Part shown: positions 5,735-37,991 of the stretch, piece by piece
Numbering within the stretch: the stretch's first letter is position 1
Layout: every line of letters starts with the position of its first letter
From: a virus
Reading direction: 5' to 3' (one strand)
DNA: 39,148 bases
Virus genome (UHGV): UHGV-1485161
Notes under the pieces: generated by a model
Told to the model about the DNA's origin: nothing
Database searches by the model: none
What the model saw: the letters and a program-made list of their open reading frames with translations, nothing else
Position numbers and translations under genes: made by a program

Positions 5735-6231
5735 TTGTCGGTGTACCTCTCTCGTTTGCTCAGTTGTTCAGGAATATGGTGCAGCAGCTCACCGTCGCCG
5801 CAGTAAATTGCGGCGTGATTCGGCACTGATGAACCAAAACAGCACAGCAGCACATCGCCCGGCTGTGCCGCTGACAACGGCACCTGATACAGCCCCGTCG
5901 CCTCCAGATTATCCAGATAGAGATTCTGGCCGTTACGCCACCAGTCATCCTCACGATGAAAGTCCGGCATCTCAATCCCCGCCAGATGATAAGCATCCCG
6001 GAACAGTGTGTAACAGTCCGTCACACCGTGCTCAAAGCGCCGCCCGGTGAGATGCGGCACACAGCGGAATTTATGAATCTCACCCCGGCAGACCAGCCAC
6101 CACGGCAAATCACTCTGCACCTGCAGCCGCCGGTCGGCCTCACTCAGCCAGGGCAGACCACCGGGGTGGCTGTGGACCAGCGCCACAATCTCACCCTGCA
6201 TCTCTGCCCGCAGCCAGTCCTCCGGCGACAT
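5632..6231 (-). CDS. K: tail tip assembly protein K (MPN/JAMM HSHPGG motif plus NlpC/P60-like region)
   Basis: Lambda-colinear: 600 nt, 103-nt overlap with I and 148-nt gap to L as in lambda. The reading frame stays open upstream to 6450 (track ORF of 272 aa) and the true start may be further upstream at 6375. Confidence 0.8.
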   Translation of the reverse strand: MSPEDWLRAEMQGEIVALVHSHPGGLPWLSEADRRLQVQSDLPWWLVCRGEIHKFRCVPHLTGRRFEHGVTDCYTLFRDAYHLAGIEMPDFHREDDWWRNGQNLYLDNLEATGLYQVPLSAAQPGDVLLCCFGSSVPNHAAIYCGDGELLHHIPEQLSKRERYTDKWQRRTHSLWRHRAWRASAFTGIYNDLVAASTFV

Positions 6232-6379
6232 CTGGAAATACTCCTCCGGCTCACCGGAGATATTCACGCAGGGAAAATATCTTTCCCCCTCCGGCGTTCT
6301 CACCACGAAGCCGCACGACTCCGCTGGCGCACATCGCCGGGCGTGCGCCAGAATCGCTGATTCTGTCTGTGTCATGGGA

Positions 6380-7077
6380 TTACTGCGAAAGTTTGTTAAT
6401 GGAAAGGAAGCCGCCAAAGTTGCCGACGTTATTGCGAAACTTACAACCACTCAGGCATTTGCTGCATTTATCCTTCGTGATATCGGACGTCGGCTGGTCA
6501 TATTCATCCGCGACAGCCGGACCGTGATAACCGCACTCATCACCGCGATAGGTCCAGGTGCAGGTATTAGCCAGCATGATGCGCCCCGGAAAAACAGCAC
6601 CGTCCGTTTCCGTCGGCGTGGACAGTACAAAAGAGGCACTGACCGCGCTCAGTTCGCTGCACTGCTCGATGCGCCAGCGGCTGATCACCTCCTGCTCCGG
6701 ATCGGCGTCACTGTTTCCGTTGACGAAGTTCACCGCATCCAGAAAACGGGCGTAAACCTTACGCCGGACCACCGTTCCGCCGACCAGACTCTGCATATCT
6801 TCCGCCATCCCGGTGACCATACCGTACAGGTTAGAAACCGTCAGCGTGGGGCGCGTACTGGTGCCTTTGCCATTCAGTTCAAAACCGCTCCCCTGAATGG
6901 GATACGGCTGATACTGTCGCCCCTGCCAGGTGACCGGCTCACCTTTTTCGTTCTGCTCATTACAGAAAAATAACGTTCTCCACCGACCTCTGTCAGGTCG
7001 ATTTCCCAGAGCACCACGCTGGCCGACTGCTCCGCACGGGTGCATTCATTCAGTGTTTCCTGCCGGATATCCTGCAT
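6380..7077 (-). pseudogene. L: tail tip assembly protein L, disrupted by a -1 nt frameshift (or assembly error)
   Basis: Track ORF 6874..7077 starts MQDIRQETLNECTRAEQSASVVLWEIDLTEVGGERYF (lambda L N-terminus) and ORF 6380..7045 carries the rest including the Cys cluster. The span is 698 nt against 699 expected; the break is at an A-run near 6964-6968. Confidence 0.85.
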
Positions 7078-7406
7078 CAGTTCACCACCTGTTCAAACTC
7101 TGCGCTGAACTCAACACGCAGCATACTGACCCGCGACGACCATTTTGCGCAGGTCACCTTTATCTGCCGCCACTCATAAGGCGGCGTCCACAGAAAGGAT
7201 TTCCAGCCCCCGTGCTCTTCCAGAAACGACTCCAGTACCGTGGCCTCCTCACGGGAGACAGAAAGCGTCACGCTGTACGTTTTCAGGTTGGCATTCAGCC
7301 CGGCAGGCGCTCGCTGAGAATAGCCATCACCAAAGCGCACCTTTCTTACAGAAGGGACCGAAGCCACATCCATACCGGGTTTCACTTTCCAGCGGAAGGT
7401 CTTCAT
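7077..7406 (-). CDS. M: tail tip assembly protein M
   Basis: Track ORF of 109 aa, same length and position as lambda M, overlapping the H stop and L start. Confidence 0.9.
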   Translation of the reverse strand: MKTFRWKVKPGMDVASVPSVRKVRFGDGYSQRAPAGLNANLKTYSVTLSVSREEATVLESFLEEHGGWKSFLWTPPYEWRQIKVTCAKWSSRVSMLRVEFSAEFEQVVN

Positions 7407-9964
7407 CGTCCACCTCCGGAGAACAGGCCACCATCACGCATCTGTGTCTGAATTTCATCACGGGCACCCTTGCGGGCCATGTCATACACCGCCTTCAGAG
7501 CAGCCGGACCTATCTGCCCGTTCGTGCCGTCGTTGTTAATCACCACATGGTTATTCTGCTCAAACGTCCCGGACGCCTGCGACCGGCTGTCTGCCATGCT
7601 GCCCGGTGTACCGACATAACCGCCGGTGGCATAGCCGCGCATCAACCGGTAGAGATTTCCCACGCCAATCCGGCTGGTTGCCTCCTTCGTGAAGACAAAC
7701 TCACCACGGTGAACAATCCCCGCTGGCTCATATTTGCCGCCGGTTCCCGTAAATCCTCCGGTTGCAAAATGGAATTTCGCCGCAGCGGCCTGAATGGCTG
7801 TACCGCCTGACGCGGATGCGCCGCCACCAACAGCCCCGCCAATGGCGCTGCCGATACTCCCGACAATCCCCACCATTGCCTGCTTAAGCAGAATTTCTGT
7901 CATCATGGACAGCACGGAACGGGTGAATCCCCGCCAGTTCTGTTCGCTGCCGGTCAGCATCGCTGCCATATTCTGTGCAATACCGTCAAAGGTCTGCGTG
8001 GCTGCACTTTTAACCTGCGACATACTGTCCGTGGCGCTCTCTTCCCACTCACTCCAGCCGGACTTGAGGCCTGCCATCCAGCTCCCGCGAAGCTGGTCTT
8101 CAGCCGCCCAGGTCTTTTTCTGCTCTGACATGACGTTATTCAGCGCCAGCGAATTATCGCCATACTGTTCCTTCAGGCGCTGTTCTGTGGCTTCCCGCGC
8201 TGCCTGCCGGTCAGTCAGCCCCCGGTTTTTCGCCTCAATGGCTGCCCGTTTTGCCCGTTGTTGCTGTGCGAACTTATCCGCCTGCTGCGCCAGCGCATTC
8301 AGGTGCTCCTGATACGTGACCTTATCGCCAAGTACAGCCAGCTGGCGTTTGTACTCCAGCGTCTCATCTTTATGCGCCAGCAGGGATTTCTCCTGTGCGG
8401 ATAGCTGGCGACGTTGTGCCGCCTCCTCCAGTACCGCGAACTGATTTTCCGCCTTCCACAAATCCCGGCGCTGCTGGCTGATTTTCTCATTCGCTCCGGC
8501 ATGCTTCTCCAGCGTCCGGAGTTCTGCCTGAAGCGTCAGCAGGGCAGCATGAGCACTGTCTTCCTGACGCTCTCCCGCAGACACCTTCACGCCGGACTGC
8601 TTCGGCTTTTTCAGCGTCGCTTCATAATCCTTTTTCGCCGCCGCCATCAGCGTGTTGTAATCTGCCTGCAGGATTTTCCCGTCTTTCAGTGCCTTGTTCA
8701 GTTCTTCCTGACGGGCGGTATATTTCTCCAGCGGTGTCTGCAGCCGTTCGTAAGCCTTCTGCGCCTCTTCGGTATATTTCAGCCGTGACGCTTCGGTATC
8801 GCTCTGCTGCTGCGCATTTTTGTCCTGTTGACTCTGCTGTTCAGCCTTCTTTCGGGCGGCTTTAAGCGCAAGACGGGCCTTTTCACGGTCATCCCAGTAA
8901 CGCGCCCGCGCTTCATCGTTAACAAAATAATCATCCTTGCGCAGATTCCAGATGTCGTCCGCTTTCTTAAACGCAGCCTCTGCCTTAATCAGCATCTCCT
9001 GAGCGGTATCAGGACGACCAATATCCAGCACCGCATCCCACATGGATTTGAATGCCCGTGCTGTCCTGTCTGCCCAGGTTTCCAGCGTGCCCATGTTCTC
9101 TTTCAGGCGTCGGGTCTGGTCATCAAACCCTTTCGTTGCGGCCTCGTTCGCCGCCTGCAATGCCCCGGCTTCATCGCCGGAACGCTGCAACTGAGCAACA
9201 TACGCAATCTGCTCCGCCGTCACGTTATGGAACTGGCGCGCCATCGCCGTCAGCCCCGACGTCGGGTCAGTGGTCAGCTTCCCGAAGGCTTCAGCGACCT
9301 TGTCCACCTCCACGCCGGATGCAGAAGAGAAACGCGCCACACTCTGGCTGATGGACGCAATCTGAGCCTCACCGCTTACCCCCGCCTTAACCAGTGCGCT
9401 GAGTGACTCGCTGGTCTGGTTAAACGTCAGCCCTGCCGCCTGCCCGGCTCTGGACAGGACCAGCATACGATCTGCCGTCAGCCCCGACTGATTGCCGGAA
9501 AGGACCAGCGTTTTGTTGAAATCGGACAGGGTTGAGTTGCCCTGATACCAGGCATACGCCAGCGCACCGGTCGCCACCGCCAGCGAGGTGGCCCCGACCA
9601 TCGGCAGGGTGATCGCACCGGCAAGCCCCCGGAACATGGGGATCATCCCGCCGAAGGAGTCCTTCACCTGACCCCCCTGTTGCAGCAGGATCAGCCACGG
9701 ACTTTGCCCGCCTGCAAGCTGCGTGGCCACGTCGGTGAACTGTGCAGGCAGCATACGCATGGCGGCTTTATACTGCCCGACGGAAATCCCCGCTTTCTGT
9801 GCAGCCAGCGCCTGCCGGTTCATCGACTGTTCAACGACTGCCGCTGTTTTTTTCGCATCACTTTCCGTACCGGAAAAATGACGCCTGACTCTGGCCATCT
9901 GCTCGTCAAATCTGGCCGCATCCAGACTTAAATCAACGACCAGATCGCCTACCGGTTCAGCCAT
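7403..9964 (-). CDS. H: tail tape measure protein H
   Basis: Track ORF of 853 aa, same length as lambda H, coiled-coil rich with a Gly-rich C-terminal region. Confidence 0.95.
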   Translation of the reverse strand: MAEPVGDLVVDLSLDAARFDEQMARVRRHFSGTESDAKKTAAVVEQSMNRQALAAQKAGISVGQYKAAMRMLPAQFTDVATQLAGGQSPWLILLQQGGQVKDSFGGMIPMFRGLAGAITLPMVGATSLAVATGALAYAWYQGNSTLSDFNKTLVLSGNQSGLTADRMLVLSRAGQAAGLTFNQTSESLSALVKAGVSGEAQIASISQSVARFSSASGVEVDKVAEAFGKLTTDPTSGLTAMARQFHNVTAEQIAYVAQLQRSGDEAGALQAANEAATKGFDDQTRRLKENMGTLETWADRTARAFKSMWDAVLDIGRPDTAQEMLIKAEAAFKKADDIWNLRKDDYFVNDEARARYWDDREKARLALKAARKKAEQQSQQDKNAQQQSDTEASRLKYTEEAQKAYERLQTPLEKYTARQEELNKALKDGKILQADYNTLMAAAKKDYEATLKKPKQSGVKVSAGERQEDSAHAALLTLQAELRTLEKHAGANEKISQQRRDLWKAENQFAVLEEAAQRRQLSAQEKSLLAHKDETLEYKRQLAVLGDKVTYQEHLNALAQQADKFAQQQRAKRAAIEAKNRGLTDRQAAREATEQRLKEQYGDNSLALNNVMSEQKKTWAAEDQLRGSWMAGLKSGWSEWEESATDSMSQVKSAATQTFDGIAQNMAAMLTGSEQNWRGFTRSVLSMMTEILLKQAMVGIVGSIGSAIGGAVGGGASASGGTAIQAAAAKFHFATGGFTGTGGKYEPAGIVHRGEFVFTKEATSRIGVGNLYRLMRGYATGGYVGTPGSMADSRSQASGTFEQNNHVVINNDGTNGQIGPAALKAVYDMARKGARDEIQTQMRDGGLFSGGGR

Positions 9965-22882: not shown

Positions 22883-23963
22883 TTACTCAAATAACTTTTT
22901 CACTTCATCAACTGTCTGAAGATAACGTTCGCCCTCAATCTCAATACCTATTGCCTGACGTCCTAACTTCAGCGCAGCTTTAATAGTTGAGCCTGATCCC
23001 ATAAAGAAATCGGCAACGATATCTCCGGGGCGTGAACTACTCTTTATAATATGTTCCATCATCGCTGCAGGTTTTTCACATGGGTGCTTGCCAGGATAAT
23101 ATTGCACAGGAGGAAACTCCCATACATCGGTATAAGGTACATCAGCAGTAACATGAAATGGACGGCGTAAATTTTCATACTGAGCCTTCAAATCATCATA
23201 CTGCTTCTTTACTTCCTCATAATGCAATTTCAGATCGCTATAACGCTTTTCATGTTCTGAATAATCAACATTAAAAGGATATGGACACGGGACACCGAGT
23301 GAATCTGCCTTCCTGCGAAATAATTCGCATAGTTTATTAAAATCAATTAATGATGGAAGCCGCCACTGCGAATAAGAAAACCAGTGTGAACACATCTGCT
23401 TTCCTGTCGCTGAATTAATGTCTGCGGCTGATATATCTAACTGACGGCGAGCCAGCGAAAAAGCATCAATTAGTGGAGAAAAAATATTTTTTCTTAAATC
23501 TGCACATTTTGAAGCATAACCTGACTGACCTTTAGCATAACCTGACGCGCCGTAATGCTCTGCAAATAATATTCTTTCAGTAGCAGGAAAATAAGCCCTT
23601 AAACTTTCTTTATGACAACCGCGCCACATACCACTGGGTTTAGCCCAAATGATATGGTTCAGAACATTGAAACGGTCGCGAGTTAATAATTCAATTTTTG
23701 ACGCAAGGCGAGAGCCGGTAAACATATACAGGCTGCCATTAGGGGCCAATATCCAGCCAAAATTCTAGCAAAAATTCGTCAAATCCACCCCCAAAAAAAG
23801 TCAGCATCGCTATCCCACTGGTTATCCCATGCGTTAGCCTTTACGCCGAAGTATGGTGGGTCTGTTGCAATCAAAATTGACCGGTTATCAGGGATGGTTT
23901 TGATAAATTGCAGAGATCTGCGCAAACGAGTTGTGCGCCATGAATATTAGTGGTTTTGAACAT
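22883..23963 (-). pseudogene. DNA methyltransferase (DPPY and FxGxG motifs), N-terminal region frameshifted
   Basis: Track ORF 22883..23749 has ...FMGSGSTIKAALKLGRQAIGIEI (motif I); upstream in other frames are IPDNRSILIATDPPYFGVKANAWDNQW (motif IV) and MFKTTNIHGAQLVCADLCNLSK. Breaks are at T7/G5/A-runs near 23760-23810 and about 23900. Confidence 0.75.
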
Positions 23964-24103
23964 TAGCTATTTACTTTTTTTTGCCCTGGGGTAAAGCTAA
24001 CCCGGCGATGCGCATCGCGGGTGGGCTTTAGGTTCAGCCTATAGCTCTGGCATGGGTTGACCGCAGGACAAGCTGCAACTTGTCCTGCGCCCACTTTTCA
24101 GGC

Positions 24104-31382: not shown

Positions 31383-31979
31383 ATGAAAACACGAGGCGAA
31401 CGACTGAAAGCACGCCGTTTAGAGATGAAGCTGACGTTGCGAGAAGTTGCTGAGGCTGTCGATATCTCTATAGCAGGCGTCCAAAACTTAGAACGTGGCG
31501 ACGTAATGCCGTCACTGGAGATAGGTATTGCCCTGGCTAAGTGCTTACGCAAGCCAGTGCATTGGGTGCTATATGGGACAGAATATGACCCTGATCGCAT
31601 TCCTGTTATTGGCACAACTGAAAGTGGGCCGGATGAAGAGTGGAAGCCGGGACAGGTTCCAAATACTGAGCGATTCCTGCCATTCATCAGCCAGCGCAAT
31701 ACTGTGTATGCGTTAACTATCAGCAATCTTACGCAGGGAAACTATCAGCCAGGCGATTTTCTCCTGGTCGATTCTGCGCTGGAACTGGTCCCCGGCGAGG
31801 ATGTTCTGGTTCGTGATACTGCAGGAAATATCACTATCCAGCGCCTGGCCCGTTTTGATGATGAAAATTACTATCTGGATGGAACAAACTCACAACGCGC
31901 CATCTTCAGGAAAAGCGATCTTGAATTTGTTCACCAAATAGTCGGAACGATCAAATCATTCATGGTTGAGGGTAGATGA
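31383..31979 (+). CDS. CI-like repressor (N-terminal XRE HTH plus C-terminal S24/LexA-like domain)
   Basis: Track ORF of 198 aa; HTH LKARRLEMKLTLREVAEAVDISIAGVQNLERGD; C-terminal domain ...GDFLLVDSALELVPGEDVLVRD...; I could not find a clear GxSM nucleophile motif. Confidence 0.8.
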   Translation: MKTRGERLKARRLEMKLTLREVAEAVDISIAGVQNLERGDVMPSLEIGIALAKCLRKPVHWVLYGTEYDPDRIPVIGTTESGPDEEWKPGQVPNTERFLPFISQRNTVYALTISNLTQGNYQPGDFLLVDSALELVPGEDVLVRDTAGNITIQRLARFDDENYYLDGTNSQRAIFRKSDLEFVHQIVGTIKSFMVEGR

Positions 31980-35200: not shown

Positions 35201-36217
35201 AAACTACCGGTTGAAGAAGGCACGCTGAAATTCTATTTCGATGGTGCTCGAGACAAAGTTCGCCGCTATGAAACAATGCTTTTAGATGAGGTAACAGCTC
35301 GTCGTTACGACCGGGAAGAAGCAGCCATCAATTTTACCTACGCATACCGTCAGGCGGGACAGTGGCAATATTTTGTAGTGACCGCGATGACTCGCGAGCA
35401 GGCTGATGATGTCTTTAAAACTAAATTCCCTGGAATAATCGATCACAAGGTAAAAGCTACTCCTACTGTTGAAGTCGGGGCGCGCGGTTTCTATGCGCTT
35501 AAATCAGCAACTCTCCGGCAGTACTTTATCGACTGCGGTATCAACCCTGAGACTATGACCGGCGAGGCGACTCAGGAGCGTCTCAAATTCGCTCGAGATA
35601 ACCTCATGACAGCCGAACGCCGTGACCTGTTGAATAACGTTCTGCACATTGGTGGTTTTATGACGCCAAAAGGGAAGCCTAAAGTGCCGGAAGCGTTGTT
35701 TAAAAACATTTGCGACTCTCTTGGCCTTAAAACAGGTAAACGTCGCGGCAGAGACGGCGATAAGCGTCCAACCTTGCGTTTTGTTGAGCCTGAATCAGCG
35801 GCATTTATGCTGGATATTCTTGCTCAGCGTCAGAAAGATGGCCTAACCCTGAAAACGCGTAAAGCCGAGAAGACCGCCATCGAAATGGATCGCGATTTGG
35901 ATCTCAATATATATATGGATGATAAAACGCGATCCACAAACGAGCAGGTTCAAAACGCCCCTCATTCAGTAATTTCTGAGGCTTTGGCTGTGTTGCCAGT
36001 GGTTGTACCTGAGTCCTGGGCGATGAGTGCGCTTTCCGGTGAGGAGCTGGCCACTATGTCATCATGGTCATCAGCCAGCATAGCTATGACGTTTGCCTCT
36101 CTGTACCTCACAGAGTTCATGGATCACTTATCCAGCAATGAACTGCGGCGGTTACGTGAATACATTACCGGGAATAGCCCATGCAGCTACGAAGAGCAGG
36201 GCGCTTTCTATGGGTAA
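32225..36217 (+). CDS. replication protein: Toprim primase domain plus P-loop NTPase/helicase, N15 RepA-like architecture
   Basis: Track ORF of 1330 aa with Toprim motifs (IAVTEGFATGASIW, CALDNDRKS), Walker A VRAGMGSGKST and Walker B YFGFDEATQ, and a long C-terminal region. Size and gene order (repressor then replicase on the same strand) recall N15 repA from memory. Confidence 0.7.
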   Translation: MTLNDFYAESHLAAIRSSLIEAARDELTELAQMAGINWSACSDNIQLNPRGGVERYSSYNKTSPEALEKSLKGRVEIYSRLEHSKGIDYPFINFVHKGSDAGSWSGFSFLFSEYRREQQRNNATVVAQPEEERARIEREARRRREEQKRINDLKNNQMDHERLLGWLAFHSAWEHAPAEDGSWPYAIKKGIRDVFNSCDVRRVTSHDSAKWSRGPTTYMAIPLAHLDGRYDGRIVGWQRIDKQGGKYQTSAVTSGDFVGACFVIGELKGAQNIAVTEGFATGASIWLATKKDKRFDAVVVAVSANNMVHVVEQLVNMYPAAKITCALDNDRKSATEGKGNTGLRTGYEILSKFNDVRCVYPTFEDDPQMECSDFNDLHKLRGLRETARQLFATANRLKTGTDLLSLTLNRLKTIKRDNRRTFAKELLRAVDIGMLTCPVPNSPSDLFNMFCIVLREMGLENIYRATVKDHIARRLNKKCRIAQAPRSFSERITDPNKRPQHITYKRFETSVMTDDVLKYVQSLQGIVIVRAGMGSGKSTGLLRPLMHSSERGISVAHRVSLIGGLWEMMTEGKGVKADILHYQDPGYQEMAPYASKLTICINSIVKNCWQPLMRQHDYFGFDEATQGLRAVLSGRAMENPVAVFNTLIDALARTEQHPIMVDADANDLLVDLAELAMKRREELGLPAWLQIHVIELPVDVRNRETGEPIRVFYTEKDRIMTEVVKAVSDGEKIMLATDSSTFAEDVTATLRMHFPGKKFLCVNQKNKPEPEVEAFTNQPKKMVKKYDGLIYSPSISSGVSIEQKHFDRHFGMFCGEVVPSDAVQMLRRDRTAKEFIIGFDKARAKRETDPQKIERAFAQALLATAGMNGELTDVVFDGDRISMGVANTDFTRMKIKAAAIEATARNDYASNMICIMHSDGYKVSPLATDYAANDIGKDLRKEARDIVWEQTLDLHLNTETPQESEREELLKKRALTLEEQAKLVRWDIENELKLPVEEGTLKFYFDGARDKVRRYETMLLDEVTARRYDREEAAINFTYAYRQAGQWQYFVVTAMTREQADDVFKTKFPGIIDHKVKATPTVEVGARGFYALKSATLRQYFIDCGINPETMTGEATQERLKFARDNLMTAERRDLLNNVLHIGGFMTPKGKPKVPEALFKNICDSLGLKTGKRRGRDGDKRPTLRFVEPESAAFMLDILAQRQKDGLTLKTRKAEKTAIEMDRDLDLNIYMDDKTRSTNEQVQNAPHSVISEALAVLPVVVPESWAMSALSGEELATMSSWSSASIAMTFASLYLTEFMDHLSSNELRRLREYITGNSPCSYEEQGAFYG
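32590..32606. repeat. 18-bp palindrome, copy 5 (17 of 18 match), inside the replicase coding region
   Basis: TGCGACCGTGGTCGCAC within codons NNATVVAQ. Confidence 0.6.
32830..32843. repeat. 14-bp palindrome CGTGACCAGTCACG, copy 2, inside the replicase coding region
   Basis: Exact 14-mer about 240 bp downstream of palindrome copy 5. Confidence 0.6.
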
Positions 36218-36401
36218 TCAGTGGATATTATCTTTGTGTCTCTTGCTTTGTGTGTTCCAGCAATGGTTTTGGTTCATAGATCGAAAGTCTCACAAGGAAA
36301 ACATGAAGGCCAGGAAGGCGATGTTTCGTGGTGAACAACTCGCGCAGACTTATCGTATGTGGAAACGTTTCTATCGTGATTTTTCGGTTAACGGGGAGTA
36401 A
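36210..36401 (+). CDS. possible small membrane peptide overlapping the replicase stop
   Basis: ATG overlapping the repA stop; MGNQWILSLCLLLCVFQQWFWFIDRK... has one hydrophobic helix then a basic tail. An alternative start MKARKAM at about 36303 has an AAGGA RBS. Confidence 0.3.
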   Translation: MGNQWILSLCLLLCVFQQWFWFIDRKSHKENMKARKAMFRGEQLAQTYRMWKRFYRDFSVNGE

Positions 36402-36405
36402 AAAT

Positions 36406-37131
36406 ATGTCTACTACTGCATTTTTGGACAAACTTGATTACCGTCAGCTGCAGTTTTGCCGGGATGAATGCGATCGACGCATTAAGGCTATCCAGGAGGA
36501 AGAAAAAAAGGTTGCCTGGGCTGTAACAGATCGTGGCCTTATCTTTGGCTGGTTCCGTACGGAGGATTATCTGAAAGCAGTGGAGTTATTGGCGCGTGAG
36601 GCTGCTGAGCGTTGGGAACGAGCCGACAAGGAAAACCCGGAGACGAAGTATGAACTGAATCTCTACATCGAGGGCAACCATCTACCATTGTCAGAGTATA
36701 ACGCTTTGTTTGCTGATGGTGAGTGGGGTTTAAAAATGGCTGTTCAATCATACAAATACGAATCCCCTTTGGATAAGGGATACATTCGTATCAAGTTAAG
36801 TCGTTCTCAGCATAAGGCTATTTTTAAGGTAAGGAAAATTCGCATATTGGATGCGTATGCGTATTACTACAACGGTGAAAATGTTGTTGTTGAACACTTT
36901 CTTGCACGATGGTTTGTAGCTCTGATTTTTGTCCCTCTCCTGTTAATTGGTACTTTTGTGGATGGTTTTCCTAGTACATGGCGGGAGATAAAGAAAGGCC
37001 TATTCCCGCGTAAGTACGGCAGATTTTCGCAAGATAGCTGGCGAGTTATACCTGGTAAACATTCTGTGGATGAGCAGCCGATTGTTGATTACTGGTTGAA
37101 GCGTATGGCTGATGCTAAAAAAGTTGATTGA
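36406..37131 (+). CDS. hypothetical protein with C-terminal transmembrane helix
   Basis: ATG with GGGGAG RBS inside track ORF 36328..37131; MSTTAFLDKLDYRQLQFCRDECDRRIKAIQEEEKK...; TM segment FLARWFVALIFVPLLLIGTFV. Confidence 0.55.
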   Translation: MSTTAFLDKLDYRQLQFCRDECDRRIKAIQEEEKKVAWAVTDRGLIFGWFRTEDYLKAVELLAREAAERWERADKENPETKYELNLYIEGNHLPLSEYNALFADGEWGLKMAVQSYKYESPLDKGYIRIKLSRSQHKAIFKVRKIRILDAYAYYYNGENVVVEHFLARWFVALIFVPLLLIGTFVDGFPSTWREIKKGLFPRKYGRFSQDSWRVIPGKHSVDEQPIVDYWLKRMADAKKVD

Positions 37132-37158
37132 GTTGTGATAACTGTTACAGGAGATAAA

Positions 37159-37446
37159 GTGAAGAGTTTTATTTTGGTTTTATGTTTTGCCTTTTCTGCT
37201 GCGGTTTATGCCCAGGAAGATAGCATTTCTGTTATTAACTCATCAGCGGAGCTTGCATGTAAAAATAATCCCGATGCTGCATCAAAAGAATCATGCAAAG
37301 AACTGCTCCTTTCGACGGCTGCTTTTGCTTCTGAAAATGCGAAATTTTATTCAGCCTTCTGTCGCGGCTATGTTAAGGAAGAAGATAAAGAAAAATGTGA
37401 TGATGCCGGTAAGTTAGTTAGGTATTTCCACTCTCTTAATCCGTAA
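37159..37446 (+). CDS. small secreted Cys-containing protein
   Basis: GTG start with AGGAG RBS; signal peptide KSFILVLCFAFSAAVYA then QEDSISV...; the mature part has five Cys. Track ORF starts at 37135. Confidence 0.5.
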   Translation: MKSFILVLCFAFSAAVYAQEDSISVINSSAELACKNNPDAASKESCKELLLSTAAFASENAKFYSAFCRGYVKEEDKEKCDDAGKLVRYFHSLNP

Positions 37447-37507: not shown

Positions 37508-37527
37508 CCCCGTGACTGGTCACGGGG
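37508..37527. repeat. 20-bp palindrome CCCCGTGACTGGTCACGGGG (14-bp family, copy 3)
   Basis: Perfect inverted repeat in the intergenic region after the secreted-protein gene. Confidence 0.6.
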
Positions 37528-37636
37528 TAAAATGTCTTTGCAAATTATTGACGTGTGCGTCGTTTTAACGGTAAAGTTACTCCGCTGCGGCAAATTCCGC
37601 AGCCGGGCGTGAGAACCCGGATAAACGAAGCGCACA

Positions 37637-37660
37637 ACACGCGCCAGCGTGTTTTTTTTT
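37637..37660 (+). terminator. intrinsic terminator
   Basis: Hairpin ACACGC-GCCA-GCGTGT followed by T9 on the plus strand. Confidence 0.6.
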
Positions 37661-37826
37661 GTGTGTATATACCTGCGCATATCCGATTTATGGTGGCTCA
37701 GGCGGGGCTGACTTCGGTCAGGCCGGTTTCTTCGTTTGCCGGTATTCTCACCCCCGCTTGGGCTACCACCATTCAAGAGCGTGAGAACTCTGGTGGTAGC
37801 ACGACCAATTAAACGGAGTGCATACC

Positions 37827-37991
37827 ATGTTCAAATTCAAATTTGCGGCAGTCGTTCGCACAGACAAAAAGTCACACATCCATCATCTTTCCACCATCGC
37901 GTCATCTGAACGGGAAGCTCGTCGCCAGTTCGCCAGCCGGTTTGTCCTGGTATTGTCTGCCCGTATTCCGGTGCGCGAGGTGGCTGCATGA
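37827..37991 (+). CDS. possible small protein (54 aa)
   Basis: ATG 8 nt after GGAG; MFKFKFAAVVRTDKKSHIHHLSTIASSEREARRQF...; stop overlaps the next ATG (ATGA). Below the ORF-track length cut-off. Confidence 0.35.
   Translation: MFKFKFAAVVRTDKKSHIHHLSTIASSEREARRQFASRFVLVLSARIPVREVAA

Follow-up and report, generated by a model that had tools for sequence, protein, structure and literature searches.

In the telomere phages of Klebsiella, the slot between repA and telN is a telocin:immunity locus, and gp35, ImmA and TelA were among only nine phage proteins detected by proteomics of a Klebsiella lysogen (Byers et al., 2025; PMC12042878). In N15, the genes in the corresponding position are genes 33-36 (gp36-gp35-gp34-gp33), a block bounded by repA and the antirepressor region. 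Two better-known envelope proteins of other phages also offer points of comparison. HK97 gp15 is an exclusion moron, and morons have varied host-benefit roles (PMC3594210); T4 Spackle (gp61.3) binds and inhibits the gp5 tail lysozyme and contains a single Cys29-Cys81 disulfide (PMC7677548). Here we describe the equivalent stretch, positions 36210-37446, of the virus genome UHGV-1485161, whose 39,148 nucleotides (the window) correspond, judging from their open reading frames (ORFs) and sequence, to the right arm of an N15-like telomere phage-plasmid. The original prediction, made from the letters of the window alone, had proposed that a three-gene module behind the replicase gene, encoding a small membrane peptide, a 241-aa membrane protein and a small secreted protein, is a candidate exclusion or defence cassette.

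The comparison with relatives leads to a different anatomy. The stretch very probably makes up the distal part of the transcription unit of repA, and its four genes appear to form two layers. What had been taken for a single coherent cassette resolves into two backbone genes, here termed g1 and g2a, and two cargo genes independent of each other, termed g2b and g3 (Table 1).

The locus coincides in place with the telocin:immunity locus of Klebsiella: both are flanked by repA/gp35 on one side and by the immA-telN region on the other, and in each a g1-like gene and gp35 come before the cargo. In the element NAR688, the order is repA, a g1-like ORF, a gp35 homologue and ImmA on the same strand, with TelA on the opposite strand; ImmA, co-oriented after gp35, is a membrane protein expressed in lysogens, and the gp35 homologue of NAR688 was likewise detected in the lysogen proteome. 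The window differs in having no bacteriocin-like gene, and scans of its ORFs against Pfam, PHROG and NCBIfam revealed no toxin domain, be it colicin, pesticin or other. Furthermore, neither g2b nor g3 is related to ImmA (Colicin_im) or Pim-like proteins: no Colicin_im or Pim match was obtained for them in Pfam, whereas the Klebsiella counterparts do match those families. In the nomenclature of PMC12042878, the window element would count as "Tel0".

Compared with N15 genes 33-36, the block lies in the same place and on the same strand with respect to repA and immA, g2a is a homologue of gp35, and a protein of approximately 110-130 aa with one hydrophobic segment is present, here followed by g3. 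On the other hand, a non-homologous gene, g1, stands in place of gp36, gp34 is missing, g3 has no N15 counterpart, and g2b is not detectably related to gp33. A gp33-type protein with a hydrophobic segment is the last protein of the block in N15 and in its Citrobacter, Salmonella and Enterobacter relatives. The possibility that g2b is a gp33 homologue was rejected at an hhalign probability of 0.7%.

Backbone genes behind repA

The three plus-strand ORFs and their close packing behind repA are present as first noted. The repA stop codon and the g1 ATG overlap (ATGGGTAA, 36210-36217), from which we conclude that g1 is translationally coupled to repA, and g1 is followed after only four bases by the next ATG. 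The GTG start of g3 at 37159 is preceded by AGGAG. All four genes have protein-level homologues, and relative to a diverged allele the dN/dS values range from 0.15 to 0.36 across all four frames, that is, below one (0.15 for g1 and 0.28 for g2b; the values for g1, g2a and g3 are each based on seven substitutions only).

The predicted membrane character of g1 was confirmed by hydropathy analysis, which places one hydrophobic segment at the N-terminus, followed by a basic tail. The gene is annotated as a coding sequence (CDS) in Escherichia phage PhiR46_1 and its product is also found as WP_021544884.1. Homologues with 37-47% identity, overlapping the repA stop in the same manner, were found in 80 plasmid records representing Klebsiella and Citrobacter elements, and blastp identified a further homologue from Enterobacter with 35% identity.

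g2a shares 63% identity with N15 gp35 over its full length (E 1e-49) and 57-80% identity with seven other gp35 homologues, and it matches PHROG 10878. Homologues of gp35 were found by tblastn in 115 plasmid records, all of them full length and all in non-mobilizable plasmids of the N15 type; Salmonella and Enterobacter plasmids also encode gp35 homologues. These proteins are approximately 108-111 aa long, and in eight of eight homologues the C-terminus is LFADG(Q/E)WG directly followed by the stop codon. The original prediction could name no family for any product of the stretch and regarded homology to N15-like housekeeping genes as evidence against a cassette; such homology was found for g2a, which forms the N-terminal half of the 241-aa ORF. 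Since homologues of g1 and gp35 are present in 80 and 115 N15-like plasmid records, respectively, these two genes are classified, by their distribution, as phage backbone genes; both recur in elements of E. coli, Klebsiella and Citrobacter.

Weak mutual similarity (blastp E 7e-3 to 3e-6) was also observed among N15 gp35, gp34-type proteins, DUF5448 proteins and the product of a 74-aa gene of the relative YDC107_1 (locus L008, 6968-7630; L024, 2936-3508; L025, 4334-4849; L002, 6430-6654). g2a is likewise weakly paralogous to N15 gp34 and to the DUF5448 proteins of the same locus. This suggests a paralogous family, including the 74-aa gene, that diversified behind repA.

The 241-aa ORF joins two genes

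The 241-aa protein of the original prediction results from an extra T, private to the window, that fuses two genes kept separate in relatives, so that the stretch contains four genes rather than three. The window reads GGGGTTTAAAAATG where relatives read GGGGTTAAAAATG. In the latter, TAA follows ...LFADGEWG and a separate ATG lies two bases on; in the window, the LFADG(Q/E)WG motif is retained and the stop after it is lost. The TT form was found in all six loci first compared (PhiR46_1, YDC107_1, the Escherichia coli plasmid CP088379.1 and three more), and a tblastn table of further loci contains the same separate gene pair. Instead of the single gene of 241 aa, every annotated relative has one of 108 aa and another of 131 aa. 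Among IMG/VR contigs the TT form occurs in 11 and the TTT form in none, and the TTT form is absent among GTDB species-representative genomes.

From 29402 to its end, the window differs from CP088379.1 by single-base insertions only, all of them extra in the window, with zero substitutions. The private insertions up to 37653 are absent from PhiR46_1, and all are absent from YDC107_1. A relative with only 72% identity also lacks the extra base at 36729, and for most of the other insertions its alignment has a gap at the site or next to it. This resembles sequencing error of the indel type in the source record. Because the extra T is missing from relatives and this part of the window otherwise shows insertions only, we take the fusion to be a private insertion and in all likelihood a sequence error.

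Alternatively, the ORF could be a real, expressed fusion, in which g2b tethers the gp35 domain to the membrane. The frame is open in the window as given and natural one-base insertions do occur. Yet the extra T is missing from every relative examined and from the 11 IMG/VR contigs, the same 10 kb contain several other private one-base insertions and no private substitutions, and the C-terminus of gp35 is invariant; we therefore regard a genuine fusion protein as very unlikely. An AlphaFold2 model of the 241-aa ORF, with three homologues in the alignment, had a mean pLDDT of 37.5 and was unusable. The 241-aa ORF should not be taken as a real protein before a read check.

Mosaic cargo in the slot

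The proposed accessory, moron-type position is borne out by three features: the low GC content of g2b and g3, sharp mosaic boundaries, and the exchange of cargo among relatives. The GC content at third codon positions (GC3) is 0.48-0.50 in repA and g2a compared to 0.37 in g2b and 0.30 in g3; the overall GC content is 0.49 in repA (GC3 0.48), 0.41 in g2b and 0.39 in g3. Composition unlike that of the neighbouring genes is one mark of a moron, and a second was also found, as otherwise collinear relatives variously carry g3, lack it or have another gene in its place. On these sequence features, g2b and g3 are AT-rich, horizontally exchanged mosaic cargo.

In the E. coli elements, g3 alternates at the slot with a 270-aa lipoprotein, and the alleles of g2b assort independently of this choice. 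The alternative protein is a lipoprotein by prediction, with a lipobox LLSGC and no Pfam family (L005, 4121-4933; also L036, L037 and L041). In Klebsiella relatives, the slot is filled by a pesticin-like muramidase together with a Pim-like periplasmic protein, or by a colicin-like pore-former (L023, 4250-5806; L028, 4987-6120), and in a Citrobacter element by a serine acetyltransferase on the opposite strand (L025, 5258-5824). Elsewhere it contains the 74-aa gene (YDC107_1) or nothing.

All annotated relatives have g2b as a CDS of its own, and its product matches PHROG 15458 over the full length. The YDC107_1 copy is 99% identical and both of its flanks are unrelated, with identity beginning at the g2b start and ending just past the stop; recombination boundaries are accordingly placed at the start and stop of the gene. 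In Klebsiella elements, genes for homologues with 31-36% identity come directly after those for gp35 or DUF5448 proteins. A relative of the N-terminal part of g2b, with 28% identity, is encoded between P and ninB in the nin region of a lambdoid prophage on a Providencia stuartii IncC plasmid (L032, 5001-5258). Given this distant relative, the N-terminal domain of g2b, as recognized by similarity, occurs beyond telomere phages.

The g3 family

The original description of g3 as a secreted, Cys-containing protein agrees with the present analysis, which predicts an N-terminal signal-like segment (Table 1) and finds four Cys in the mature part. The mature part is 77 aa long, and C34, C46, C68 and C80, which presumably pair in two disulfides, are invariant in the family. 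In an AlphaFold2 model (pLDDT 78.7), four helices follow the signal peptide; the mature part is predicted to form a helical bundle. g3 matches PHROG 26765.

Most of the seemingly close homologues of g3 are frameshifted versions of g3 itself. Exhaustive HMMER searches followed by a profile search yielded approximately 20 intact and diverse members with 29-47% identity, from metagenomes, Citrobacter, Klebsiella and Salmonella. All intact members have a signal peptide (predicted export) and the four invariant Cys. One relative with 45% identity occupies the repA-immA slot of a different N15-like element that has no g1, gp35 or g2b. Other members lie between the tail chaperone gene and the tape-measure gene, where HK97 has its exclusion moron gp15. 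In Klebsiella prophages these members adjoin HipA_2-like genes and, in one case, also a TIR gene, and in the Klebsiella locus scanned terminators flank the g3-like gene on both sides. A further group lies between lambda-type tail genes I and J with a 137-aa partner, again with terminators on both sides. No clear promoter was found for the tail-operon homologues. Since g3-family genes occur without g1, gp35 or g2b, g3 is, as far as gene neighbourhoods indicate, an autonomous single-gene insert, independent of those three genes.

In the Klebsiella prophages, the g3-like gene is part of a small insert island in the tail operon, together with the HipA_2-like gene and a gene for a 293-aa protein of unknown function (L009-L012, about 6000-8400). 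In one Klebsiella genome, the TIR-domain gene lies slightly beyond the island (L010, 12797-13675). The interval between tail chaperone and tape-measure genes in these prophages may be a defence hotspot.

Remote-homology searches did not connect the stretch to any defence or exclusion family. Pfam and NCBIfam gave no credible match for the window proteins, and PADLOC-DB no family at E up to 1 for g1, the 241-aa ORF or g3. PHROGs placed three of the four genes in families of unknown function and returned none for g1, and PHROG scans of the neighbours of g3 homologues likewise gave only families of unknown function. Profile searches of PDB with the gp35, g2b and g3 families produced nothing meaningful, nor did fold searches of PDB and BFVD with g3 return any significant hit. 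An assignment of g3 to DUF2385/TIGR02301 was rejected; the match was weak (E about 0.07-0.1) and present in only 1 of 22 family members.

Transcription signals and genomic setting

The stretch had been said to end at a strong intrinsic terminator. A perfect, GC-rich hairpin does follow g3; it lacks a plus-strand T-tract and was not called by a consensus scan, and the claim is borne out in part only. The hairpin may be a weak or bidirectional terminator. It belongs to a conserved stretch at the 5' edge of the immA region; its sequence is conserved in YDC107_1, and N15 has an imperfect copy. A canonical terminator is located further downstream, inside the immA leader RNA, and matches the terminator annotated in N15.

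The nearest phage record is Escherichia phage PhiR46_1 (97.7% identity), and the nearest record of any kind is the E. coli plasmid CP088379.1 (99.8% identity). We found no source paper for PhiR46 in the literature; the ECOR13 papers do not mention PhiR46, and in an E. coli pangenome defence screen ECOR13 figures solely as a test host. CP088379.1 is described as a 36.6-kb "circular" plasmid, in which the right arm is perfectly duplicated head-to-head in inverted orientation, a long-read assembly artefact typical of a hairpin-ended linear plasmid.

The remaining private insertions of the window (Table 1) affect several other features. Those at the 5' end of repA amount to a net gain of three bases and alter the N-terminus locally, and those at 37652-37653 lengthen the T-run of the immA-leader terminator. 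The three at the 3' end of the BRO-N gene leave a product of 235 aa here compared to 257 aa in CP088379.1. In addition, private insertions, two substitutions and two single-base deletions are clustered at 23755-23993, where the comparison was made with CP088379.1 only.

Table 1. Features of the window in and around the stretch downstream of repA
Feature	Position	Strand	Description
Q and cro		minus	First in the right-arm gene order
CI/CB-type repressor	31383-31979		After Q/cro
RepA, 1330 aa	32225-36217	+	After the repressor; followed by the g1-g3 stretch
g1, 63-aa ORF	36210-36401	+	Predicted small inner-membrane protein; hydrophobic residues 5-23, basic cytoplasmic tail
241-aa ORF	36406-37131	+	g2a joined to g2b
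g2a, 108 aa	36406-36729	+	Predicted cytoplasmic protein, N15 gp35 homologue; natural TAA stop destroyed in the window
TTT run with one private extra T	36729-36731	+	TAA changed to TTA; puts g2a in frame with g2b, making 36406-37131
g2b, 131 aa	36736-37131	+	Basic, putatively membrane-associated protein; own ATG, GGGG Shine-Dalgarno; hydrophobic residues 60-78
g3 ORF, 103/95 aa	37135/37159-37446	+	Two possible starts
g3, 95 aa	37159-37446	+	Predicted secreted protein; GTG start; predicted signal peptide residues 1-18 (ending AVYA, then QE)
GC-rich hairpin, perfect	37508-37527	+	8-9 bp stem, CCCCGTGAC TG GTCACGGGG; 3' of g3
P1 immI/N15 immA-type secondary immunity region			At 37548-37773, 3' of g1-g3; followed by icd-like and BRO-N genes
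Promoter-like site	37548-37577		In the secondary immunity region
c4-a1b1	37571-37623		Rfam match above gathering score
isrK	37584-37657		Rfam match above gathering score
Canonical terminator	37636-37653 + T9		Inside the immA leader RNA; matches N15 annotation
C4 antisense RNA	37686-37773		Rfam match above gathering score
icd-like gene	37818-37991
Private insertions relative to CP088379.1	32251, 32256, 32275, 36729, 37652-37653, 38919, 38937, 38977

Discussion

The locus type, the gp35 family and the variable slot in Klebsiella are already known; the g3 family and g2b are uncharacterized and have no curated family. For the cargo, we tentatively favour a role in protecting the envelope of the lysogen, exerted by g3 and/or g2b, a reading taken from position and localization only. 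Under this reading, transcription from the repA promoter would continue through the genes in the lysogen. Such lysogenic expression of the genes after repA is likely, judging from the translational coupling to repA, the lack of an internal promoter-like site and, by analogy, the NAR688 proteomics. The cargo proteins g2b and g3 would then act at the envelope and shield the lysogen. In the periplasm, g3 would bind either the tail-tip or DNA-entry component of an incoming phage, blocking its entry, or a toxin that acts in the periplasm. Of the two possible roles of g3, exclusion is somewhat more likely than immunity. Confidence in the whole is set by its weakest step, the protective function, and is as tentative as for that step.

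If correct, g3 would be a functional analogue of T4 Spackle or HK97 gp15, unrelated to either. Like HK97 gp15, it is a small envelope protein of a temperate phage, and its Klebsiella relative lies in the same slot, flanked by terminators. HK97 gp15 is, however, a YebO-like inner-membrane protein, whereas g3 is predicted to be a soluble periplasmic protein with four Cys, and homology between them is not expected. A broader proposal is that the g3 family constitutes a new class of periplasmic protective protein, which blocks superinfecting phages or bacteriocins in unrelated temperate phages (N15-like and lambdoid/HK97-like) as an independent analogue of Spackle, with g2b perhaps as a further component at the level of the membrane; we consider this possible and rather doubtful.

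Several observations weigh against envelope protection. A moron-slot position fits many other functions, and gp35 and g1 may have no envelope role at all. The topology of g2b is ambiguous by hydropathy, with basic flanks on both sides of the hydrophobic segment. g3 itself is rare, being found only in 19 E. coli/Shigella plasmid records and one phage record. Finally, the scan revealed no promoter-like site within 36210-37446, so that expression rests on read-through from repA. A literature search on N15, protelomerase and superinfection exclusion returned nothing.

Among the alternatives, g3, g2b or both could be orphan bacteriocin immunity proteins of a "Tel0" phage that has lost its toxin or never had one; these envelope proteins would neutralize the periplasm- or membrane-acting telocins or colicins of competitors. 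This would agree with the nature of the slot in Klebsiella relatives (PMC12042878), with the location of ImmA in NAR688 directly after gp35 on the same strand, as for g2b here, and with the immunity protein of a TelB-type element, which is Pim-like and periplasmic and has a signal peptide. Nevertheless, no immunity family, Colicin_im and Pim included, shows similarity to g2b or g3, no toxin remnant is found nearby, and the tail-operon relatives of g3 have no adjacent bacteriocin gene. On balance, orphan immunity seems unlikely.

The genes could also serve maintenance or regulation without any defence role, through modulation of RepA, coupling of replication to the membrane or control of copy number, which is plausible mainly for g1 and gp35. 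Both belong to the conserved backbone that is translationally coupled to repA, Byers et al. place gp35 among proteins "known or hypothesized" in regulation or maintenance (PMC12042878), and many of the relatives examined encode a protein with a single hydrophobic segment, of either the g2b or the N15 gp33 type. However, linear replication of N15/pJAZZ is described as requiring RepA and TelN from the phage (PMC2847241), N15 itself and many relatives have neither g2b nor g3, and g3 is predicted to be exported and also occurs in integrated prophages without repA. We likewise give this explanation only a small chance.

A third alternative would make g3 a factor of lysogenic conversion or fitness that has nothing to do with attack by phages or bacteriocins, such as a protein that inhibits host lysozyme in the periplasm, protects against stress or modulates adhesion. 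A small, exported protein with predicted disulfide bonds that is carried as prophage cargo would suit such a function, given the variety of host benefits conferred by morons (PMC3594210). This appears quite improbable, as g3 has no similarity to lysozyme-inhibitor families in Pfam or PDB, and no specific pointer to such a role was found.

That g3 is a homologue of T4 Spackle inhibiting tail lysozyme, as annotated in GenBank PV340565, where the PhiR46_1 record labels a 98.9%-identical gene "Spackle exclusion protein", is almost certainly wrong: hhalign of the g3 family profile aligns only a 16-residue signal peptide (probability 16.7%), phmmer and profile searches of PDB return no Spackle chain, and fold comparison finds no match to the solved Spackle helical bundle. 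g3 does have a predicted cleavable signal peptide for periplasmic export, as is characteristic of the Spackle family, and both are periplasmic helical proteins of approximately 75-77 aa with disulfide bonding (PMC7677548; predicted in the case of g3). The two differ in that Spackle has one disulfide compared to four invariant Cys in g3, and in that Spackle comes from the early genes of a lytic phage and g3 is prophage cargo. The resemblance is thus one of kind only: small, periplasmic, helical and disulfide-bonded. The "Spackle" label in the public record should not be propagated.

Returning to envelope protection, if the cargo does protect the lysogen, then E. coli telomere phage-plasmids would have, in their repA-telN slot, a general locus of envelope weapons and shields, extending beyond the bacteriocins of Klebsiella. 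The four-Cys family would then count as a new type of periplasmic protein for exclusion or immunity.

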